Origin: Escherichia phage mEp554
Sequence record: PP180005
Strand: one strand, 5' to 3'
Length of the DNA stretch: 53,846 bases
A program made the position numbers and the translations under genes. Below the pieces are notes generated by a model. It searched no databases, was not told the DNA's origin, and saw only the letters and a list, made by a program, of their open reading frames with translations. Of the stretch, positions 43,299 to 53,695 are shown piece by piece. Position 1 is the stretch's first letter, and each line of letters starts with the position of its first letter.

Positions 43299-44003
43299 AT
43301 GCGCAACATACCTACAGAGATGATTATTGATTCCGTCGATGCCGGAGTCGGCGCTGTAATTGACTTGTTTGAATTAGACCTCACGCCCCTGGGTGGCGAG
43401 GTTATCCGCTTCCATTCCGGCGCTAATGGCTATTACGGCCCGGTTATCTGGAAGGGCTTGGCTTACAACAGCTACCCGATCGAGGCTACTGGCTTCGAAA
43501 TGAAAAACGAAGGTGTTTACTCACGCCCACAAATGGTAGTGGCAAACATTGGCGGCCTAATCACTGGGATGAATAACGATTTTAACGACCTGCGAGGAAT
43601 GAAGGTTACGCGCCGCCAGGTGGAAGTAAAATACCTGGACGCCGTCAACTTCCCCAATGGCAACCCGGATGCAGATCCATCTATTGAGGCTGTATCTTTT
43701 TACGTCGTTGAGGCGATGAGCGAAGAAACAGCCGACCAGGTGCAATATGAACTGTCAACGCCAATTGACGCTGACAAGGCGGTTATTCCAGGGCGCACAA
43801 TCCTCGCTGACGTTTGCCAATGGCAATACCGTGGCGACGGTTGCGGATACAGTGGCGGCCCTGTAGCTACTGAAAAAGACGAATCGACCAGCGATCCTAA
43901 GCTGGATAAGTGCAGCCACCGCCTGAGCGGTTGCCGTTTGCGTTTTCCGCGCCCGAACCCGTTACCAATTTCATGTTTCCCTGGATCAAGCAAGGTCGGT
44001 TAA
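43299..44003 (+). CDS. Minor tail protein L
   Basis: 234 aa; C-terminal CQWQYRGDGCGY...CSHRLSGCRLRF cysteine cluster as in lambda gpL. Confidence 0.8.
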   Translation: MRNIPTEMIIDSVDAGVGAVIDLFELDLTPLGGEVIRFHSGANGYYGPVIWKGLAYNSYPIEATGFEMKNEGVYSRPQMVVANIGGLITGMNNDFNDLRGMKVTRRQVEVKYLDAVNFPNGNPDADPSIEAVSFYVVEAMSEETADQVQYELSTPIDADKAVIPGRTILADVCQWQYRGDGCGYSGGPVATEKDESTSDPKLDKCSHRLSGCRLRFPRPNPLPISCFPGSSKVG

Positions 44004-44005
44004 TT

Positions 44006-44737
44006 ATGGCACTTGAAGATAAAATGATTCGCTATGCGGCAGCCCACCAGGAAGAGGAAGTGTGCGGGCTGGTGATAGATAACGATTATTTTTACCCGTG
44101 CGCTAACGTGTCTGAAACGCCTCACAACAGCTTTAAAATCTCGCCTGACGATTATATCAAAGCTGACGAATTAGGCGTTATAACCGCCGTTTTTCACTCC
44201 CATACTGACAATTCGTTGATATTGTCAGCGCTGGATCGACAACAGCAGGTTATTTCCGGCATGCCGTGGTATTTGTGTTCCGGCGGCAGGGTAAGAAAAT
44301 TCCGCCCGGTGGCGCACCTGTTAGGACGTAAATTTGAACACGGGAAAGCAGATTGTTACTCGCTTTTCCGTGACGCATATCATCTTTGCGGCGTGGATCT
44401 GCCGGACTTTGAGCGCCACGATGGGTGGTGGCTGCGTGGGGAAAACCTGTACATAAAGAACCTGCCATTGCACGGGTTTTTCATGGTTGACGCTCAAAGC
44501 ATTCAGCCCGGTGATGTGATTATCCGTCAGCCATTTAAAGGCGCTGACCCATGCCACGCGATGATTTACCTGGGCGATAACACTGTTTTGCATCATGACA
44601 ATGCCGGACTGTTAAGCCGCCGCGAGCAAATGCGGCCCGCGTATGTTCGACAGACCAATTCAATATGGAGATCTGACAAATGCTCAAATTTAGATTTACG
44701 GGCAATCTTCGAAGATATTACGGCAAGGTGTGTTTGA
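44006..44737 (+). CDS. Tail assembly protein K (JAMM/MPN plus NlpC/P60-like)
   Basis: HSHTD JAMM-like motif; cysteine/histidine pattern; position after L. Confidence 0.75.
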   Translation: MALEDKMIRYAAAHQEEEVCGLVIDNDYFYPCANVSETPHNSFKISPDDYIKADELGVITAVFHSHTDNSLILSALDRQQQVISGMPWYLCSGGRVRKFRPVAHLLGRKFEHGKADCYSLFRDAYHLCGVDLPDFERHDGWWLRGENLYIKNLPLHGFFMVDAQSIQPGDVIIRQPFKGADPCHAMIYLGDNTVLHHDNAGLLSRREQMRPAYVRQTNSIWRSDKCSNLDLRAIFEDITARCV

Positions 44738-45210
44738 ACGTTGATACACCAGCCCAGGGACTTGGCTTGCTGGTTGCGCAGAATCATGAGTTCAAAAAGG
44801 CGTTTTTAAGCACCCCGTTGCGTTTACGAATTGCCGGGAAAGATTATGACGAAAAGACCGCGCCCGCAGCGGTTAATAGTAAATATCCAGATGGTACTAC
44901 CGTCATTGTTGCGCCAGTGGTGGAAGGTGGTATTGCAGGGATTGGCGTTGTAGGCTGGATTTTGATCGGTGTTTCGGTTGTTAGCGTTGCGTTCTCGATC
45001 TTCATGTCTCGCAATATGAAGATAAAAACATCAGCAGAAAGCGCACAAGATAACACCATATCTAACAACACATACACCAGCGTTGAAAACAAGGTTGGCC
45101 AGGGTAGACCAGTGCCGATCCTGTTGGGTGAAATGAAAATAGGTTCAAACGTCGGATCGTTAGGCATAGACACAAGTAACAACAAAGACGCCTTAGACGT
45201 TGTAAGTTAA
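44680..45210 (+). CDS. Tail assembly protein I
   Basis: 176 aa; hydrophobic central segment; position between K and J; overlaps K by 58 nt. Confidence 0.65.
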   Translation: MLKFRFTGNLRRYYGKVCLNVDTPAQGLGLLVAQNHEFKKAFLSTPLRLRIAGKDYDEKTAPAAVNSKYPDGTTVIVAPVVEGGIAGIGVVGWILIGVSVVSVAFSIFMSRNMKIKTSAESAQDNTISNNTYTSVENKVGQGRPVPILLGEMKIGSNVGSLGIDTSNNKDALDVVS

Positions 45211-45224
45211 CAGGAGAAAAGGCC

Positions 45225-48200
45225 ATGAGTAGCGGCGGCGGCAAAGCCAAAACACCAACATTATTAAACGATAACCTGTATCATAAACAGTTTTATCGTG
45301 TTTTAGACATTCTCAGCGAGGGGCCGATATACGGACCTGTAAACCAGAAAGCGCCATTAAACAGCGTAATGCTTAATGACACGCCTATCACTGACGCCAA
45401 CGGTAATACATCAGTCCCCGGCGTTAGCGTGGCGTGGCGCAATGGTACTGCTGACCAGTCACCAATCAACGGCTTCAACGCCATTGAATCAACCGTTATT
45501 GTCAACGCAAAAGTAACTCACGATACGCCAATAATCAGGACCGTTTCAGATCCAAACGTTAACCGCGTAAGGCTGAATCTTGGCGTTGATTCTCTGGTTC
45601 AGTCAGATGATAAGGGCAATCAATACAATACATCAGTTACGTTGATGGTTGACGTTAAGCCTTCATCTTCAACAACGTGGTCACTGGTTAAGGATATTCA
45701 CATTGGCCCGGGTAAGCAAAGCGGCGAGTACCTCGAAGCGCACATCATCAAAGCACCGGATGAAAAACCGTTTGACATTCGCGTTCGTCGCGTAACGCCG
45801 GACAGCACTGGCGATCTACTTCACAATGATACCAGGTGGAGCAGTTACAGCGAGATAATCGACGATAATTTGTCTTATCCTCATACCGCTGTAGCAGGCG
45901 CGGTAATTGACCACGATCAGTATACTGACACGCCGACACGTACTTATCACATGCGCGGCCTTATTGTTGACGTGCCTGATAACTACGACCCGGAAACGCG
46001 CACGTACTCAGGTTTATGGCTTGGTGGCTTTAAAAAGGCGTACACCAACAACCCTGCGTGGCTTTTCCGGTATCTGGTTAAAAATGAACGCTTCGGGCTT
46101 GCCCGCCACGCTGGTTACATCGACGTTGATGACGGCGCACTGTATACGCTTTCTCAATACTGCGACCAGTTGGTAAACGACGGTTACGGCGGCCTTGAAC
46201 CACGCATGACGCTTAACGCTTACATCACGGAGCAAATGAGCGCCCGCGACTTGCTGGATAACATTGCAGGCATGTTCCGTGGTATCGCATTATGGGACGG
46301 GCAGCGCCTTACGGTGATGATTGATGCACCGCAGGATCCAATTGCCACCATCACAAATGCAAACGTTGTTGATGGTGCGTTTACTCGTTCAAGTATCGCC
46401 CGCGCAGAATCTTACAACGCCGTGATTGTGTCATGGACTGACCCGGAAAACGGTTGGGAACAATCAAAAGAATACGTGGCAGATGATGAACTGATCGCCC
46501 GCGATGGTTACAACGAAACCACGTTGGAGGCTTTCGGTTGCACGTCACGCGGGCAGGCGTACCGCGCTGGCAAATGGCTGATAGAAACAGCAAAACGCGA
46601 ACCCTCAAAATTCACGTTTAAAATGGCCCGTGACGCAATTCACTTCACACCAGGGGATATTATCGAGATACTCGACAATAACCGCGCAGGCGCTCGTTTA
46701 GGCGGTCGCATAGTGGCGAATAATGGGAAAGTTATAACTGTAGACAAAGTTGATTCTGACCTGGTGGCGGCTGGTGACACTATCAGCTTACTGGACAGCG
46801 ACGGCAAGTTTAAAAAACATCAGATCACTGGGGTTAACGGAAACAATATTACCCTTGCGTCAGCGCCCGCATGGATTCGTAACGGAACCGTGTTTGCTGT
46901 ATCGACTGAATCTGCAAAACCCGTTCTGTGTCGAATTACCAGCGTAGCGGAAACCGAAAACAACAGCGTGTACACCATCGAGGCTGCACAGCACGATCCG
47001 CATAAACAGGCTGTAGTTGATGAAGGCGCAATCTTCGAGGTAAACAACGACACGCTTAATCACTTCCGCGTGCCGAACATTGAAAATCTGAAGGTGTTAA
47101 ACGTTGGTTCTGAGACAGTACAATGCCGCGCAACATGGGAAACACAGACGACAACGCATCGCCTGACCTTTGAAATACGCGTATATAACACCGAAGGCCG
47201 CATTGTGGCAACTTATGAAACCACGAATTACCGCTATGATTTTTATGGCCTCGACGCTGGCAGCTACACTATTGGTATTCGCGGGCGTAATGACACTGGC
47301 ATGAAGGGTGCGGAAAGTATTGTGGACCTGGTTATTGGTGCGCCAGCGGCCCCGATTGGAGTCAATTGGGTTCCTGGTGTCTTCCAGGCAACGGTATATC
47401 CGATCAGCAAAACAACCCTGACCACTGACACGGCATATGATTTCTACTACTCAGGTGAAAATCAGATCACTGACCCGTCAAAAGTAACCACGCTGGCACA
47501 GTTTACCGGGCGCGGCTACCAATGGACTTTTGGAGGCATGAACACGGGACACACCTATTACGTTTATGTGCGCACGCGTAATGCCTTTGGTGTGTCAGAC
47601 TTCGTTGAGGTATCAGGTAAACCAACTGAAAACTTCGATGAAATCAGCGACTACGTGATGAAGGATGTCATGGAGTCAGAACAGTTCAAAGATATGATTG
47701 GCGACATTAAAGATCTTGGCGACCGCGCTGATCTTATCGAAAGCGCTACAAATGACCTGAAAAACGCTACTGACAACCTCAAAACTGCAACTGATAACCT
47801 GACAAACATCACTGACGATTTGAGGGTTGAAACTGACAACCTGACAAACATCACTGACGAATTGAGGACTGATACGGACGGCCTAATCACAGAAACAGGG
47901 GCCATAAAAGCTGACACAGACACACTGAAAAAAGAAACGGAAGATCTCTATAAAAAGGTTGAGGAAAACGCCGACGATATTGGACAGCATGAGGCAAGAA
48001 TAGATTCTCTTGAGGTATCTAGCGAAAAAGTTGGCAGTGAACTGGCGCAAGCAAAAGCAAGCCTGCAAAACGCGTCATTGGCGCTTATCAACAACTCCCT
48101 TGCTCAGACCAACACGCGGGTTACTCTCACTGCACAGTACAAGAAAGGCAGGACAGAGACGAAGGCTGAAATTGACCGCATCGACAACGTTATTGCTGAA

Positions 48201-50711
48201 GAGAAAAAGGCTACAGCGGAATCACTGGAAACCATCACAGCAGAAATGAACACGATGGATTCTAATCTTAAGGGTCAGATCTCCAACGTGGAACGCGCAG
48301 TGGCTGACGAATCAAGCGCCCGCGCTGAAGCAATCAACGGCGTTAACGCATCAATAAGCAATCTCGACAAGAAAACCGACGCCAGCGTCAATAGACTTGA
48401 TCAGGCCATCGCAGACGAAACGAACGCCCGCACACAGGCAGTCAGTGACGTTAACGCGAGTGTCTCATCGCTAGACAAGAAAACTGACGCCAGCGTGAAA
48501 CGCCTGGATCAAGCAATAGCAGACGAAACCAGCGCAAGAACTGAAGCCATCAGCGGTGTGAATGCGTCAATTTCCACGCTTGATAGCAAGGTAACAAGCA
48601 ATGTAACGCGCATAGATAAATCTATCGCCGACGAAACGAAGGCCCGCACTGACGCAATCAGCGGGGTCAAAGCAAGTATTGACACACTTGAAGGTAACAC
48701 CAATTCAGAAGTTAAACGCCTTGATCAGTCGATTGCCGACGAGGCCAGCGCCCGCGCCCAGGCTGTGAGCGATGTTAAAGCATCAATAAGCAACCTTGAA
48801 AGCAAAACTGACGCCAGCGTTTCACGTCTCGACAAGGCAATTGCAGACGAAACACAGGCAAGAAGCGCTGCAATAACAGATGTTAAGGCTGATTTGACAA
48901 CGCTTGAAAACAGCACAAACGCCAGCGTTAAACGTTTGGATCAGGCTATTGCAGACGAATCAAGCGCCCGCGCTGAAGCAATCTCAGGCATTAACGCGGA
49001 GATCGGCAGCATTGAAAATAGCGTTGACAAAAACAGCGATGATATAAATCAGACAAAAGCAAGCCTGCAAAACGCATCTATTGCTCTGATTAACAACTCA
49101 ATCGCTCAAACCAACACGCGTGTTACGCTTACGGCCCAATACAAGAAAGGACGCAAAGAAACCAACGCGCAAATTGACCGTATTGACAATGTTATCGCAG
49201 AAGAGAAAAAGGCTACAGCCGAATCAATTGGCGTGGTAAAAGCATCGATCACGGATCTTGATAAGAAAACCGATGCCAGCGTTTCGCGTCTCGATAAAGC
49301 AATTGCAGACGAAACCAACGCACGCAGCCAGGCGGTGAGCGACGTTAACGCAAGCATTTCAGCGCTCGACAAGAAAACCGATGCCAGCGTTAAGCGTCTG
49401 GATCAAGCTATTGCAAATGAAACCAGCGCACGCAGCGAGGCAATCAGCGGCGTGAATGCAAGCATTAACACCCTTGAAAGCAACACCGAATCCGAAGTTA
49501 GCAGACTGGACCAGGCAATTGCTGACGAGGCCAGCGCCAGAGCGCAAGCCATCAGTGGTGTGAATGCGTCAATTTCAACCCTTGATGGCAAGGTTACAAG
49601 CAACGTGACCCGCATCGACAAAGCCATTGCAGACGAAACGAAGGCACGCACAGACGCAATCAGTAGCCTCAATTCATCGCTTACCAGTACGATTAACTCG
49701 AAGGTGTCTGAGGTATCAACGGCGCTTTCTACACATGAAGCATCAAGCGCGGAAAAATTCGGCCAGATCTCAGCGTCTTTCGAATCTGTAAACTCAAGTA
49801 TTACAGAATGGTCGCAGGCTATGGCAACGGCTGACGAGGCATTGTCAACCAAAATTGATCAGTTAACAGTAACCGTTAACGGTAACAAAACGGCGATCGA
49901 GACGACATCGAACGCGCTAACCGATTTCAAGGGTAACGTTGATGCGTCGTATTCCATCAAGCTGGCAACCGATAACAACGGCATGAAGTACGCTACAGGT
50001 ATGTCGCTTGGCCTGACTGGTAACGGTACAAACTTTCAATCGCAGTGTATTTTCCTTGTTGACCGCTTCGTGTTAATGACAGCAGCAAACGGCACATATA
50101 CAACGCCTTTCTATATGTCTAATGGTGCAATGTATGTGAAAGAAGCGTTTATTAAAAACGCATCAATAGGAGAAGCCAAAATTGCAAACGCTGCAATCAC
50201 ATCAGCCAAAATCGCACAGCAAATACAGTCAACAGAATTTGTTAAAAACTCAAAAGGCTGGATGATTAACAAAGATGGGTGGGCTGAGTTCAATAGCGTT
50301 ACGGTGAGGGGTACTGTGTATGCTACGGACGGTAAGTTCGCCGGTTCACTTGAGGCGAAAACCTTTATCGGTGATGTTGCAAATATGTATACAGGAGGTG
50401 ACGTTAGCAGGTTAAATGATGGCGTACTGGAAAAAACAATTACATACAACGATACATCTAACGCAGCGTACAGACGACACATCTGCGTTATGGCAAACGT
50501 TAAAGGTTTTGGTGGCTGTACAATAACTATCGGAAGTTCAGAAAAATCCCTTTCTATGAGTGGAGACGAACGCCTTGTCATGCATTCAGCGGCAATAACT
50601 ACCAGTGGCGTTACAGTTAAAATTAAGGTATCCGCTCAAAATGGTAGGGGTGCATATATAAATTCGCCGACCGTCATTGTGTCGCGCGGTTCTGGTTCAT
50701 TCTCAGGATAA
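45225..50711 (+). CDS. Host specificity protein J-like tail tip / central fibre (1828 aa) with internal repeat expansion
   Basis: Lambda J-like N-terminal 800 aa; long coiled-coil repeat stalk; AGGAG SD. Confidence 0.9.
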   Translation: MSSGGGKAKTPTLLNDNLYHKQFYRVLDILSEGPIYGPVNQKAPLNSVMLNDTPITDANGNTSVPGVSVAWRNGTADQSPINGFNAIESTVIVNAKVTHDTPIIRTVSDPNVNRVRLNLGVDSLVQSDDKGNQYNTSVTLMVDVKPSSSTTWSLVKDIHIGPGKQSGEYLEAHIIKAPDEKPFDIRVRRVTPDSTGDLLHNDTRWSSYSEIIDDNLSYPHTAVAGAVIDHDQYTDTPTRTYHMRGLIVDVPDNYDPETRTYSGLWLGGFKKAYTNNPAWLFRYLVKNERFGLARHAGYIDVDDGALYTLSQYCDQLVNDGYGGLEPRMTLNAYITEQMSARDLLDNIAGMFRGIALWDGQRLTVMIDAPQDPIATITNANVVDGAFTRSSIARAESYNAVIVSWTDPENGWEQSKEYVADDELIARDGYNETTLEAFGCTSRGQAYRAGKWLIETAKREPSKFTFKMARDAIHFTPGDIIEILDNNRAGARLGGRIVANNGKVITVDKVDSDLVAAGDTISLLDSDGKFKKHQITGVNGNNITLASAPAWIRNGTVFAVSTESAKPVLCRITSVAETENNSVYTIEAAQHDPHKQAVVDEGAIFEVNNDTLNHFRVPNIENLKVLNVGSETVQCRATWETQTTTHRLTFEIRVYNTEGRIVATYETTNYRYDFYGLDAGSYTIGIRGRNDTGMKGAESIVDLVIGAPAAPIGVNWVPGVFQATVYPISKTTLTTDTAYDFYYSGENQITDPSKVTTLAQFTGRGYQWTFGGMNTGHTYYVYVRTRNAFGVSDFVEVSGKPTENFDEISDYVMKDVMESEQFKDMIGDIKDLGDRADLIESATNDLKNATDNLKTATDNLTNITDDLRVETDNLTNITDELRTDTDGLITETGAIKADTDTLKKETEDLYKKVEENADDIGQHEARIDSLEVSSEKVGSELAQAKASLQNASLALINNSLAQTNTRVTLTAQYKKGRTETKAEIDRIDNVIAEEKKATAESLETITAEMNTMDSNLKGQISNVERAVADESSARAEAINGVNASISNLDKKTDASVNRLDQAIADETNARTQAVSDVNASVSSLDKKTDASVKRLDQAIADETSARTEAISGVNASISTLDSKVTSNVTRIDKSIADETKARTDAISGVKASIDTLEGNTNSEVKRLDQSIADEASARAQAVSDVKASISNLESKTDASVSRLDKAIADETQARSAAITDVKADLTTLENSTNASVKRLDQAIADESSARAEAISGINAEIGSIENSVDKNSDDINQTKASLQNASIALINNSIAQTNTRVTLTAQYKKGRKETNAQIDRIDNVIAEEKKATAESIGVVKASITDLDKKTDASVSRLDKAIADETNARSQAVSDVNASISALDKKTDASVKRLDQAIANETSARSEAISGVNASINTLESNTESEVSRLDQAIADEASARAQAISGVNASISTLDGKVTSNVTRIDKAIADETKARTDAISSLNSSLTSTINSKVSEVSTALSTHEASSAEKFGQISASFESVNSSITEWSQAMATADEALSTKIDQLTVTVNGNKTAIETTSNALTDFKGNVDASYSIKLATDNNGMKYATGMSLGLTGNGTNFQSQCIFLVDRFVLMTAANGTYTTPFYMSNGAMYVKEAFIKNASIGEAKIANAAITSAKIAQQIQSTEFVKNSKGWMINKDGWAEFNSVTVRGTVYATDGKFAGSLEAKTFIGDVANMYTGGDVSRLNDGVLEKTITYNDTSNAAYRRHICVMANVKGFGGCTITIGSSEKSLSMSGDERLVMHSAAITTSGVTVKIKVSAQNGRGAYINSPTVIVSRGSGSFSG
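47750..49690 (+). repeat. Tandem repeats inside J: short TDNL-type repeats, then about twelve 96-bp units (DKKTDASVxRLDQAIADETxAR...) arranged as a duplicated block of about 1 kb
   Basis: Directly visible periodic DNA and protein repeats; linker QNAS(L/I)ALINNS(L/I)AQTNTRVTLTAQYKKGR occurs twice. Confidence 0.8.
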
Positions 50712-50719
50712 AAAAACAA

Positions 50720-50744
50720 CCCCGCTTCGCGCGGGGTTTTCTTT
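50720..50744. terminator. Bidirectional rho-independent terminator, copy 2 of duplicated module
   Basis: CCCCGC-TTCGC-GCGGGG hairpin plus T-run; follows J and the convergent lipoprotein gene. Confidence 0.65.
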
Positions 50745-50992
50745 TAGTAGTTGGCTACACAGTTCGACGGGCTACCGATGCGGCGCATATTGTGATCGAG
50801 TTCATGACACCATTGCCCAGTATACGGCAGTTTTTCAGTGTCATAGACAAGATGACCACTACCATCATAAACAATATCATGTGGAATTACTCCGCTATTT
50901 GGCAGGTTGTGCAATGCGGCCTCTTTGTCAACAGCACAGCCAGTAAGAGCAACAGCCGCAGCGAACAAAACCACTTTGAACACGTTTTTCAT
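50744..50992 (-). CDS. Small lipoprotein (82 aa), opposite-strand moron between J and side tail fibre
   Basis: MKNVFKVVLFAAAVALTGC lipoprotein signal with LTGC lipobox. Confidence 0.6.
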   Translation of the reverse strand: MKNVFKVVLFAAAVALTGCAVDKEAALHNLPNSGVIPHDIVYDGSGHLVYDTEKLPYTGQWCHELDHNMRRIGSPSNCVANY

Positions 50993-51169: not shown

Positions 51170-53695
51170 ATGATTTATACGACTGGAACAATTGCCATCA
51201 ACGGCAATACTGTTACAGGCACGGGAACAAACTTTTCCGCGCCGCTTTCTCTCATTCGTGTAGGTTGCACGCTCATTGCCATCGGCAACCAGGTGCAGAT
51301 CTTTACAGTTACAGAAATTAAAAACGGTACTGAACTGTCAGTAACGCCAGCGGCTAACCCTGCGATCCCTGCCGGAACAAAATTTAGTATTCTGCTATCT
51401 GACTCGATCTCAGTTGATGGGCTTGCTCAGGATGTAGCCGAAACTCTGCGTTACTACCAGGGCAAGGAAACAGAGATTGCAACAGCCGTTGAATGGTGGA
51501 ACGAGTTCGGCGGTGATGGTCAGATGGAACAACTTCTTGCCGACATTCGCGCAGAAACAGCGCAATCAACCGCCAATGCTCAAAAAACAGAATCAGACAA
51601 AAACGCGGCAGCAGCATCAAAAACGGCAGCAGCAAACTCAGCCACAGCAGCAAAAGCGTCACAGGATGCAGCAAAAGCCAGCGAAACGTCAGCAAGCAAC
51701 AGCAAAACGGCGGCGGCTACCAGCGAAACCAATGCGGCAAAATCAGCAGCCGATGCGCTTAACTATCGCAACCAGGCGCAGGGCATTGTGGGGACTGATA
51801 TAGGTTTGGGTGCAAATCGCCGCGACTGGCCTGACTGTAACGATCCGACAGGATATATAGGTTTTTGCCGTGCCGAAGCGTCAACAGCAAAAAACTTTCC
51901 GTCGATTGCATCAGGAGAGCTTTACCTTGTTGGTTGGTTGGCGCGCGGTGACGGTGCAACTATTAACGGCTGTTTCGTTGGTACTGTTACCCGTTCACTG
52001 TATACCTACAGCTATAACAACGCAGACAAATCAGTTGCGTGGACGCGTCACGCAAGAAAAGACGAAGTAGATCGCTTTTCTCAAATAGGTAGCGACCAGA
52101 CCCGTATTTACGCTGGCAACGGTAAAACATATTTAGAAATTGGCAACGATCGTGCATGGGGTGTTTATAATGGCGAGACTGGTCAATGGAAACCGTTAGA
52201 TCTTGCGCAAGGCGGTACATCTGGACGTAATTCAGGACAGGCGCGTACAAACCTTGAGGTTATGCACGAGAAAAAATCAGCTCTCAATTCCACTAATATT
52301 AATACGCTCACTGGTGAGTATTCTGGTTTTTATTACCAGGCATCAAATGTAGGCGCTACGGCAGAGTTAGGTTATCCAGTAGCAGGCGCGGGAGCATTAC
52401 TTGTTATAAAAAACGGCGCAAATAGTGCATCAGGATGTACGCAGCTCTATTTCCCTTACAATGCTGTAAATGGCGCATTTTATATGCGCCAATATATCCT
52501 TCAATCTTCCTCTGCTGGCTGGGAGTGGACTTCATGGAAAAAATTTCAGTCACTTGATTTTGCTGATAGCCCACAATTTGCCAATCTCAATCTTGTAATT
52601 TCTTCGGATAATGAAACCACTAACGGAGGTATACTGCAAAGCATACTCAACGGTACAACAGGAGCGCAAAGAGCCAGAACGCGCATTTACACCGAGTTTA
52701 GGGGTGATGGTAAGGCGTGGGCAACAACTCATCTACAGAGTGGCAGCAGTAATAAATATGCAGGATTGAGCGAAGACGGAGATTTTGCTTTAAGTACAGG
52801 TGATTTTGTCGCCAGAAGTGCACGATTATCATCAAACGTAAGCAATCCATTAACTTTGACGAGCGCACACCCAACAATTAAATTTGATGAGACTGACAGA
52901 CCTGAAGGGTCGCCGGACTACGCTTTTATCTGTGATGGTGGGAACTGGCGTATTGAAAGAGATCATTGGGATACATCAAAAGCCAAAGATTGCATCTCAT
53001 ATAGTTACAGCACACAAGAAATCAAAGTACCAAATCTGTCGACTCAAAATATTGCCATTCATGGAGGCAAAAGTTCCGGCGCTGGTACACTCCGGATTGA
53101 AAGTCAAAAAAGTTCAGACGAAGGGATGTATATTCGGGCATGGGGTAACGGTACGGATCGCTTGTCTGTTCTGGAGGTATCACTAGACTCAGGATTCCTA
53201 TTCTATGCCCAAAAAGTCGCTGACGGAAGCAAGGTACTAAGGGTTAACGGTTCAGTAACATGCACAACAGTTAACCAGACTTCAGATCGCGACCTAAAAG
53301 ACAACATTCAGGTTATAGGTGACGCTACTGAAGCAATCCGTAAAATGAACGGGTACACTTATACCCTTAAGGAAAACGGCCTGCCTTACGCTGGCGTTAT
53401 CGCTCAGGAGGTCATGGAGGCGCTGCCGGAAGCTGTTGGATCGTTCACCCATTACGGTGAAGAATTGCAGGGACCGACCGTTGACGGACGCGAGCTACGC
53501 GAAGAAACGCGTTATCTCAATGTTGACTACGCCGCAGTGACTGGTTTACTTGTCCAGGTGGCACGCGAAACAGATAACCGCGTAACCGAACTGGAAGAGG
53601 AAAACGCCATCCTACGCGCTAACATTGCTGAAATGGATGAGCGTATCGCAAAACTTGAAGCGCTTGTCAGTAAGTTGACAGAAGGCGAAAAATAA
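51170..53695 (+). CDS. Side tail fibre protein with C-terminal intramolecular chaperone (S74-type) domain
   Basis: Ala/Ser/Thr-rich lambda Stf-like N-terminal repeats; C-terminal SDRDLKDNI...NGYTYTLKENGLPYAGVIAQEV...coiled coil. Confidence 0.85.
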   Translation: MIYTTGTIAINGNTVTGTGTNFSAPLSLIRVGCTLIAIGNQVQIFTVTEIKNGTELSVTPAANPAIPAGTKFSILLSDSISVDGLAQDVAETLRYYQGKETEIATAVEWWNEFGGDGQMEQLLADIRAETAQSTANAQKTESDKNAAAASKTAAANSATAAKASQDAAKASETSASNSKTAAATSETNAAKSAADALNYRNQAQGIVGTDIGLGANRRDWPDCNDPTGYIGFCRAEASTAKNFPSIASGELYLVGWLARGDGATINGCFVGTVTRSLYTYSYNNADKSVAWTRHARKDEVDRFSQIGSDQTRIYAGNGKTYLEIGNDRAWGVYNGETGQWKPLDLAQGGTSGRNSGQARTNLEVMHEKKSALNSTNINTLTGEYSGFYYQASNVGATAELGYPVAGAGALLVIKNGANSASGCTQLYFPYNAVNGAFYMRQYILQSSSAGWEWTSWKKFQSLDFADSPQFANLNLVISSDNETTNGGILQSILNGTTGAQRARTRIYTEFRGDGKAWATTHLQSGSSNKYAGLSEDGDFALSTGDFVARSARLSSNVSNPLTLTSAHPTIKFDETDRPEGSPDYAFICDGGNWRIERDHWDTSKAKDCISYSYSTQEIKVPNLSTQNIAIHGGKSSGAGTLRIESQKSSDEGMYIRAWGNGTDRLSVLEVSLDSGFLFYAQKVADGSKVLRVNGSVTCTTVNQTSDRDLKDNIQVIGDATEAIRKMNGYTYTLKENGLPYAGVIAQEVMEALPEAVGSFTHYGEELQGPTVDGRELREETRYLNVDYAAVTGLLVQVARETDNRVTELEEENAILRANIAEMDERIAKLEALVSKLTEGEK

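Follow-up and report, generated by a model that had tools for sequence, protein, structure and literature searches.

What do nearly 700 additional residues do in the tail tip protein of a lambda-like phage? The question is posed by gene J of Escherichia phage mEp554, a temperate siphovirus of the mEpimmI group that needs LamB (PMC11893012). The gene encodes the central tail fibre, or tip attachment protein, and lies at positions 45225–50711 on the plus strand of sequence record PP180005, whose whole stretch of 53,846 nucleotides is called the window here. Its open reading frame (ORF) comprises 1828 aa plus a stop codon, against 1132 aa for lambda J; the surplus of 696 aa bears out an earlier note, made from the letters of this DNA, which had put it at about 700. 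That these residues build a hyper-extended, modular, recombining alpha-helical shaft is well supported, and the feature is real and biologically meaningful, not an artefact. A fuller reading, which we hold to be fairly probable, is that the repeat region (aa ~812–1566) is a hyper-extended three-stranded alpha-helical shaft with recombining modules and with units that can switch fold.

A repeat-built shaft between conserved domains

Residues 1–851 of J align with residues 1–858 of lambda gpJ (8iyk_J) in a phmmer search of the PDB (E 1.6e-181), and Pfam places FNIII-A_GpJ (aa 88–214), Phage-tail_3 (335–492), Ig_J (609–707) and Ig_J_second (709–811) in series, with E-values of 6e-36 to 2e-16. This lambda-like hub and FNIII/Ig part (aa 1–811; 45225–47657, plus strand, as for all parts of J below) ends where the Pfam domains stop at aa 811; the alpha-helical shaft starts in the following stretch (aa 812–841; 47658–47747), where the phmmer alignment still reaches the lambda shaft and a helix is predicted from aa 819. 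Beyond the shaft lie Phage_Tail_Tip (DUF1983, PF09327; aa 1557–1704, E 2.5e-35; 49893–50336), with its first beta strands at aa 1573–1598, and a C-terminal receptor-binding beta-sandwich (aa ~1705–1828; 50337–50708). The hub with the FNIII/Ig series, the Phage_Tail_Tip prism domain and the gene order L-K-I-J, the last read from PHROG matches of the neighbouring ORFs and from the annotation of mEp044, mEp021 and other relatives, identify the gene as a lambda-type J. Ig_GpJ_C (PF12421), which lambda J possesses (E 4.5e-74), was not found in J by the Pfam scan; membership of the family does not depend on this lambda-type C-terminal receptor-binding domain, which is a variable module.

Lambda gpJ (8iyk, 8xck, 8xcj; Ge and Wang 2024, PMC11101478) belongs to the same family and has the same domain order, namely hub, FNIII/Ig, shaft, Phage_Tail_Tip prism and C-terminal receptor-binding domain; its shaft starts at the same point after Ig_J_second, and both phages use LamB. 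In lambda gpJ, the alpha-helical shaft is a three-helix element of residues 809–861 that connects FNIII-2 with the beta-prism fibre; upon LamB binding this shaft flips and refolds in part, freeing the FNIII closure (PMC11101478). The two proteins part company in length. From the end of Ig_J_second to the start of Phage_Tail_Tip, lambda J runs from residue 818 to 845 (27 aa) and mEp554 J from 811 to 1557 (745 aa), so that a lambda shaft of ~50 aa stands against a repeat-built gap of 745 aa. Because the same two flanking Pfam domains bound this gap, the ~700 extra residues are an expansion of the alpha-helical shaft alone.

An AlphaFold2 (AF2) monomer model of aa 800–1600, built on an alignment with 34 homologues, predicts helices at aa 819–922, 937–1292 and 1307–1545, and strands from aa 1573. 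Block means of the predicted local distance difference test (pLDDT) are mostly 70–84 in the full repeat units described below, and about 74–84 in the first block of them; values drop below 50 at aa 915–944 (helix break 923–936), at aa 961–978 in the first of two linkers and at aa 1291–1308 in the second. A second monomer model, covering aa 1440–1828, is concordant and adds a mostly confident C-terminal beta-sandwich (block-mean pLDDT ~64–91); for the Phage_Tail_Tip region, the best Foldseek matches are the lambda central fibre structures 8xck and 8xcj. Fourier analysis yields a hydrophobic period of 3.52 residues in a zone of heptads near the start of the shaft and 3.60 in both blocks of units, with no such peak in control regions. 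On a 36/10 helical wheel, the ten core positions of each 36-aa unit (1, 5, 9, 12, 16, 19, 23, 27, 30 and 34, an 11+7+11+7 pattern) all fall within 46 degrees. Predicted helices throughout, together with these two periods, agree with the coiled-coil stalk that the earlier note had claimed; by analogy with the gpJ and F-pyocin structures, it would consist of three parallel chains. Drawn as one continuous helix, aa 819–1545 would span ~108 nm, and the fibres of the family would measure ~55 to 108 nm if fully helical.

The interval in which repeats had been noticed, 47750–49690, corresponds to aa 842–1489 of J. It opens with an acidic heptad zone (aa 842–912; 47748–47960) of about ten xTDxLxx heptads, marked by Tandem Repeats Finder (TRF) and by the hydrophobic period; within it, at 47755–47858, TRF detects a repeat of 21 bp, or 7 aa, that matches the short TDNL-type repeats described previously. 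A low-confidence helix break (aa 915–944; 47967–48056; pLDDT <50) includes the acidic patch ADDIG (aa 916–920; 47970–47984) and is followed by linker copy 1 (ASLQNASLALINNSLAQTNTRVTLTAQYKKGR...; 48052–48224). This linker overlaps d1, a degenerate 36-aa unit (aa 975–1010; 48147–48254) recognized by a hidden Markov model (HMM) of the unit at an i-Evalue of 1e-4. Block 1 comprises seven tandem units of 36 aa or 108 bp, A–G (aa 1011–1262; 48255–49010; i-Evalues 1e-20 to 1e-24). The acidic patch SDDIN (aa 1271–1275; 49035–49049) then precedes linker copy 2 (49054–49226), which belongs to the same direct repeat family (D2) as copy 1, and the degenerate unit d2 (aa 1309–1344; 49149–49256; found with the unit HMM) leads into block 2, four tandem 36-aa units H–K (aa 1345–1488; 49257–49688; TRF period 108 and unit HMM). 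The distal shaft (aa 1489–1566; 49689–49922) is not repeated and is homologous, by phmmer, to the fold-switching coiled coil of the F2 and F7 pyocins.

With unit HMM i-Evalues of 1e-18 to 1e-24, the repeats of J are far beyond chance. The claim of about twelve tandem units of 32 aa (96 bp) was right in kind but not in size. TRF reports a unit period of 108 bp, the repeat spacing is 108, and the protein stacks perfectly at 36 residues per line; the consensus string on which the shorter unit was based itself covers 34 of the 36 positions. As for number, the unit HMM counts 13, with seven full units in one run and four in the other and one degenerate unit ahead of each (an 8+5 layout), that is, 11 full and 2 degenerate. 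The duplicated block stands: the linker copies, ~75 aa each and offset by 1002 bp, share 82% nt identity, and a run of units follows each. Between the blocks, paralogous units pair as d1–d2, B–H, C–I, E–J and D–K, at 69–78% nt identity (d1 and d2 share 67% aa identity), and block 2, no simple duplicate, goes back to an old copying of block 1 with later rearrangement. Codon differences between paralogous units are mostly synonymous (15 synonymous vs 3 nonsynonymous for C–I), and the units are therefore under purifying selection.

Searched against 1.84 billion representative proteins, the unit profile gave just 71 matches at E <=0.001, and the 36-aa repeat type is rare. The matches are mostly long proteins with uninformative names and with related ADExxAR-type repeats of 33–48 aa; a few of the 71 have a J-like N-terminus or tip domain, and other phage lineages have therefore built similar shafts. 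The Pfam coiled-coil families SF-assemblin, DUF4806 and Baculo_PEP_C gave no more than generic or sub-threshold matches to the stalk, which we judged to be compositional, and membership in them was rejected. Most homologues have PF28217 and PF27241 in their precomputed Pfam annotation; the Pfam scans made here returned neither. Minus-strand ORFs within the repeats (47651–47923, 49106–49372 and 49403–49852) are taken to be by-products of repetitive codon composition. Long parallel coiled coils of tandem repeats with non-heptad periods and interruptions are familiar from surface fibres such as streptococcal M protein, the stalks of the trimeric autotransporter adhesins YadA and BadA, and T4 fibritin, a type in which intragenic recombination changes copy number and sets fibre length; they differ from J in having unrelated sequence, another cellular context, no tail-opening machine and no beta-prism motif.

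Length differences in repeat steps

The DNA of gene J is 90% identical to that of mEp044 and also matches mEp021, mEp010, mEp515, mEp013 and MagusPhagus; mEp021 and mEp515 are also colinear with the left end of the window, starting at base 1. Compared with named relatives, J carries heptad-zone indels of 14 and 35 aa and unit-region indels of 36, 108, 144, 144, 298 and 334 aa, every one of them in repeat phase. The comparison was broadened to the 120 best J homologues, among which 118 proteins have all three landmarks needed for length-phase counts. Heptad-zone lengths differ by multiples of 7 aa in 116 of these 118; stalk lengths differ by multiples of 36 aa in 99, and by the 334-aa block in another 17. 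The 120 homologues display 29 block architectures with 3 to 11 full units, the J proteins of mEp554 and mEp044 being the longest at 1828 aa, and a single linker only is found in 18 of the 118. Even within one type of C-terminal receptor-binding domain (41 proteins including mEp554), shaft lengths fall into 14 classes between 374 and 722 aa.

A single step of this kind is captured by mEp515, whose J is that of mEp021 minus one in-frame segment of 1002 bp (334 aa) and is otherwise 100% identical in protein and in DNA; the deletion junction lies inside homology between unit D and unit K. Because the two mEp021 blocks have diverged from each other, the difference must stem from a recent deletion, a duplication being ruled out. 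On K-12, the two phages form plaques via OmpA (PMC11893012). The repeat-phase indels, the range of architectures and this deletion uphold the suggestion that the repeats expand and contract, and the proposed comparison of J among related phages accordingly found lengths that vary, in steps of 7, 36 and 334 aa. Unequal or homeologous recombination between units would be the likely cause of the change in copy number; the mEpimmI group encodes its own recombination proteins.

Could the array, or its variation, have another origin? The mEp554 genome was assembled from Illumina MiSeq reads alone (PMC11893012) and the region is repetitive, which are the grounds for suspecting that repeat number or block duplication arose by short-read mis-assembly. 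We regard this as very improbable: the longest exact repeat in J is 30 nt and the units are 45–80% identical in DNA, the independent assemblies of mEp044 and mEp021 have the same 8+5 layout, prophages in closed chromosomes of 4.8–4.9 Mb carry 7+3 and 8+3 arrays, and the reading frame is unbroken across 1828 codons. No exact repeat in J exceeds read length, and with the longest intragenic one so short, the assembly collapse that had been feared is unlikely. More improbable still, to the point of being hardly credible, is targeted hypervariation, in which the linker copies would be the template/variable repeat pair of a diversity-generating retroelement or of some other programmed system. Such a system is brought to mind by a 173-nt repeat pair of 82% identity within a tail-fibre gene, yet the mismatches are not adenine-specific (copy 1 has A at 3 of 32, either copy at 10), and both linkers are translated in frame and lie in the helical shaft, not in the receptor-binding domain. 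A diversity-generating retroelement at the linker pair is ruled out by the mismatch spectrum.

The repeats are already on record descriptively, in one sentence of a 2025 paper on the mEpimmI group, which states that J sizes differ, with "repeats of different length (positions 950-1,475)", and which also reports that these phages use LamB or OmpA as receptors (PMC11893012). That paper treats the same gene without unit size, structure, phase analysis, block layout or mechanism, and does not remark that mEp515 J is mEp021 J minus 334 aa. A literature search on repeat-number variation in tail-fibre coiled coils found no relevant work. New here are the unit size, the placement of the expansion in the alpha-helical shaft and the phase-exact copy-number polymorphism; also new are the mEp021/mEp515 pair with its otherwise identical J and the match to the pyocin fold-switch signature described below. 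The mEpimmI-type J offers a natural series of one shaft with 3 to 11 full units, and mEp021 and mEp515 a natural test pair whose J proteins are identical save for the 334-aa block, in cultivable K-12 phages with known receptors (LamB, OmpA). The series makes it possible to test shaft length against reach and against ejection kinetics or stored energy, as well as the competence of the units to switch fold. For annotation and for the engineering of phages and tailocins, it follows that the J proteins of this group differ in length by quantised changes of modules, and that such differences are no errors.

Pyocin-like strand motifs and possible functions of the shaft

In F-type pyocins, the subject of three papers of 2026, the J homologue possesses a coiled-coil shaft of ~163–180 aa that has been called "exceptionally long" (PMC13455828; bioRxiv 10.64898/2026.02.24.707460). 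In the F7 pyocin, this shaft turns into a triangular beta-prism on cell contact, driving tip opening, and the switch region is characterized by the strand motif SxSxxMxxLxS and by a buried Glu-Arg (i, i+4) pair (PMC12874032). Residues 1403–1660 of J match residues 916–1168 of the F2-pyocin fibre (25vf_A) with a phmmer E-value of 3.5e-26, gapless over F2 1013–1090; the alignment extends into units I–K only with low posterior probability. F2 numbering rebuilt from the alignment puts 16 of 16 residues named in three pyocin papers on the right letters. With a permissive form of the motif, the strands of F2 read as forward at 985, 1017 and 1049 and as reverse at 1002, 1034 and 1066, a hairpin period of 32 aa, with reverse-to-forward motif pairs at 1002 and 1034. 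At the aligned positions 1474, 1492, 1507, 1524, 1539 and 1556, J carries the same strand motifs.

The signature recurs upstream in the repeats. Each of the 13 units contains a reverse motif (positions 7–17), a 4-residue turn and a forward motif (positions 22–32), so that aa 937–1572 hold 15 reverse-to-forward (+15) SxSxxMxxLxS pairs, one per unit and two in the pyocin-like core. Among controls, the other open frames of the window (18,495 aa) gave 3 pairs, shuffled sequences gave a mean of 0.09, and 0 of 5000 column permutations came up to the observed count. In lambda J there are no such pairs; lambda gpJ lacks them and has PF12421, and mEp554 J is the opposite on both counts. Conservation was read from 388 distinct units of the 120 homologues, in which positions 7, 15, 17, 22, 24 and 32, as well as position 26, which alternates with them, are small in 100%; at 15, 22 and 26, Ala is conserved to 99%. 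E19 (100%) and R23 (99.7%) are invariant, lie 46 and 6 degrees from the core axis, and by their sequence appear to be a core Glu-Arg (i, i+4) pair like F7 E1039-R1043. Positions 7 and 32 face outward on the helical wheel (166 and 174 degrees from the core), where the other outward positions, 3, 14, 21 and 25, vary freely; a coiled coil alone leaves the small-residue constraint at 7 and 32 unexplained.

The F-pyocin central fibre (F7, PMC12874032; F2/PA0641, PMC13455828; PDB 25vf) is a J homologue whose long trimeric coil runs from FNIII to the distal beta-prism. Its likeness to mEp554 J consists in the homology of the distal 160 aa of the mEp554 shaft, at the E-value given above, in the alternating strand motifs, the 4-residue turn and the core Glu-Arg i/i+4 pair, and in an acidic patch near the start of the coil. 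There are differences too: the pyocin coil of ~163–180 aa has no tandem repeats, whereas mEp554 J has in addition a heptad zone, two linkers and 13 hairpin-like units of 36 aa; the hairpins of F2 and F7 are 32 aa long against units of 36 aa; and switching is reported for F7, against a sequence likeness here.

Non-contractile tails must generate force and bring their tube to the membrane, and F-pyocin work of 2026 proposed the coil-to-prism fold switch of the central fibre as the energy source. In gpJ and in F-pyocins alike, the shaft stands between the FNIII domains that close the tip and, on its far side, the distal beta-prism with the receptor-binding domain (PMC11101478; PMC12874032). Because the lambda and F-pyocin shaft is a known conformational transducer, the mEp554 stalk is likely more than a passive spacer. 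It is plausible, if at somewhat less than an even chance, that the units are amplified fold-switch hairpins. The 36-aa unit would then be an amplified copy of the F7-pyocin coil-to-beta-prism hairpin; LamB binding would let a metastable coil collapse to a compact prism, the collapse would draw the tail tip down to the outer membrane and cause it to open, and copy number would set both reach and stroke. A bolder version, to be taken as tentative, treats the 13 units, the two linkers and the pyocin-like core (~630 aa per chain) as one giant metastable spring. A coil of ~95–108 nm would convert to a beta-prism of ~17 nm (our estimate) on LamB binding and reel the tail tip ~80–90 nm down to the outer membrane, powering tip opening; repeat copy number would set reach, stroke and stored energy, and the heptad zone would act as an external spine, length-matched to the prism. 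Interest would be high if this version were true.

Several observations weigh against switching units. In an hhalign comparison of the unit profile with the F2 hairpins, the probability was 0.7%, which is not significant, and the unit HMM gives no match to the phage's own distal core. The SxSxxMxxLxS motif is loose, consisting of small residues and a/d-type hydrophobics, and the small positions 15, 17, 22, 24 and 26 flank the core, where they could simply allow tight trimer packing. The AF2 monomer gives helix only, a result with no bearing on a trimeric prism. The authors of the F7 study describe lambda and T5 as being without extensive switching (PMC12874032), and the mEpimmI paper reports tails of ~130 nm with no mention of a ~100 nm fibre (PMC11893012). 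As mEp515 still plaques on K-12 without its 334 aa, most units are dispensable. Length matching of the heptad zone finds a weak hint at most, since its length correlates with that of the stalk at a Spearman rho of 0.48 (118 proteins, relatedness uncorrected).

Two other readings of the shaft draw on the same data. In one, which we think rather unlikely, the shaft is a stable trimeric coiled coil whose units do not switch fold and which sets only how far the receptor-binding domain stands from the tail tip, for instance to get past O-antigen or capsule to LamB, its copy number drifting or being selected for reach. A helix with coiled-coil periodicity is what AF2 and the Fourier analysis predict; the 14 length classes within one receptor-binding-domain type, the deletion tolerated in mEp515 and the non-significant profile homology between units and F2 hairpins likewise suit a spacer. 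A spacer, however, needs neither the small residues at exposed positions 7 and 32 nor the conserved Ala at 15, 22 and 26, and the strong purifying selection on paralogous units also speaks against it; moreover, a rigid fibre of ~100 nm would keep the tube far from the membrane, so that collapse or bending would be needed anyway, as in lambda and F7. In the other reading, each linker with the acidic patch before it is an attachment site for side fibres, the duplication having produced two tiers with units as spacers between them. F-pyocin side fibres do dock on an acidic shaft kink, DDADDGNG (PMC13455828; PMC12874032), and the F7 authors note side-fibre attachment as a possible role of the non-coil bends that shaft predictions show (PMC12874032). 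In J, ADDIG (aa 916) and SDDIN (aa 1271) each stand ahead of a linker, AF2 breaks fall at 915–944, 961–978 and 1291–1308, and a side-fibre gene lies downstream at 51170–53695. We nevertheless consider such docking improbable: the side-fibre N-terminus resembles Klebsiella phage depolymerases and is unlike any pyocin chain in the PDB, the side fibres of Ur-lambda attach via collar domains that touch gpV and gpM and not J, and 18 of the 118 relatives manage with one linker only.

The receptor-binding tip and neighbouring genes

In DNA, the last ~116 aa of J (50364–50711, 348 nt) match the tail fibre gene of two phages that otherwise have nothing in common with J, Cronobacter phage CSP1 and Escherichia phage CSP1C, at 93–94% identity; judged by this match, the receptor-binding tip seems to have been swapped by mosaic exchange. 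The tip domain is not of the lambda Ig_GpJ_C type, though mEp554 uses LamB.

The side tail fibre gene (51170–53695, plus strand) encodes 841 aa, the C-terminal part of which matches PHROG tail-fibre families. Over the first ~187 aa, the protein resembles Klebsiella phage depolymerases in their N-terminal domain (7vyv, 7lzj; E ~1e-30); an assignment of this N-terminus as a pyocin side fibre was rejected, as the PDB holds no pyocin homologue of it, and the F-pyocin side fibre is unrelated to it there. The fibre gene downstream of J has 449 aa in mEp021 and mEp515 and 655 aa in mEp010. Upstream, a 189-aa gene sits between I and J in mEp021, where it is annotated as a putative HNH endonuclease, and in mEp515, where it is hypothetical; it is absent from mEp554 (~45210–45225), mEp044, mEp010, mEp013 and MagusPhagus. 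The K-like ORF (43910–44737, plus strand), if read from GTG as its first possible start, overlaps the end of the L-like ORF (43299–44003, plus strand) by ~94 nt; the mEp021 annotation of the K-like gene uses a later start and gives 714 nt. In the whole window (1–53846), no tRNA genes and no Rfam families at the gathering score were found.

Directly downstream of J, on the minus strand, lies a gene for an 82-aa lipoprotein (50744–50992). The lipoproteins of mEpimmI phages are described as mediators of superinfection exclusion, and Q38H and V40I have been published for mEp554 (PMC11893012); its lipoprotein differs from that of mEp010 by exactly these two substitutions.

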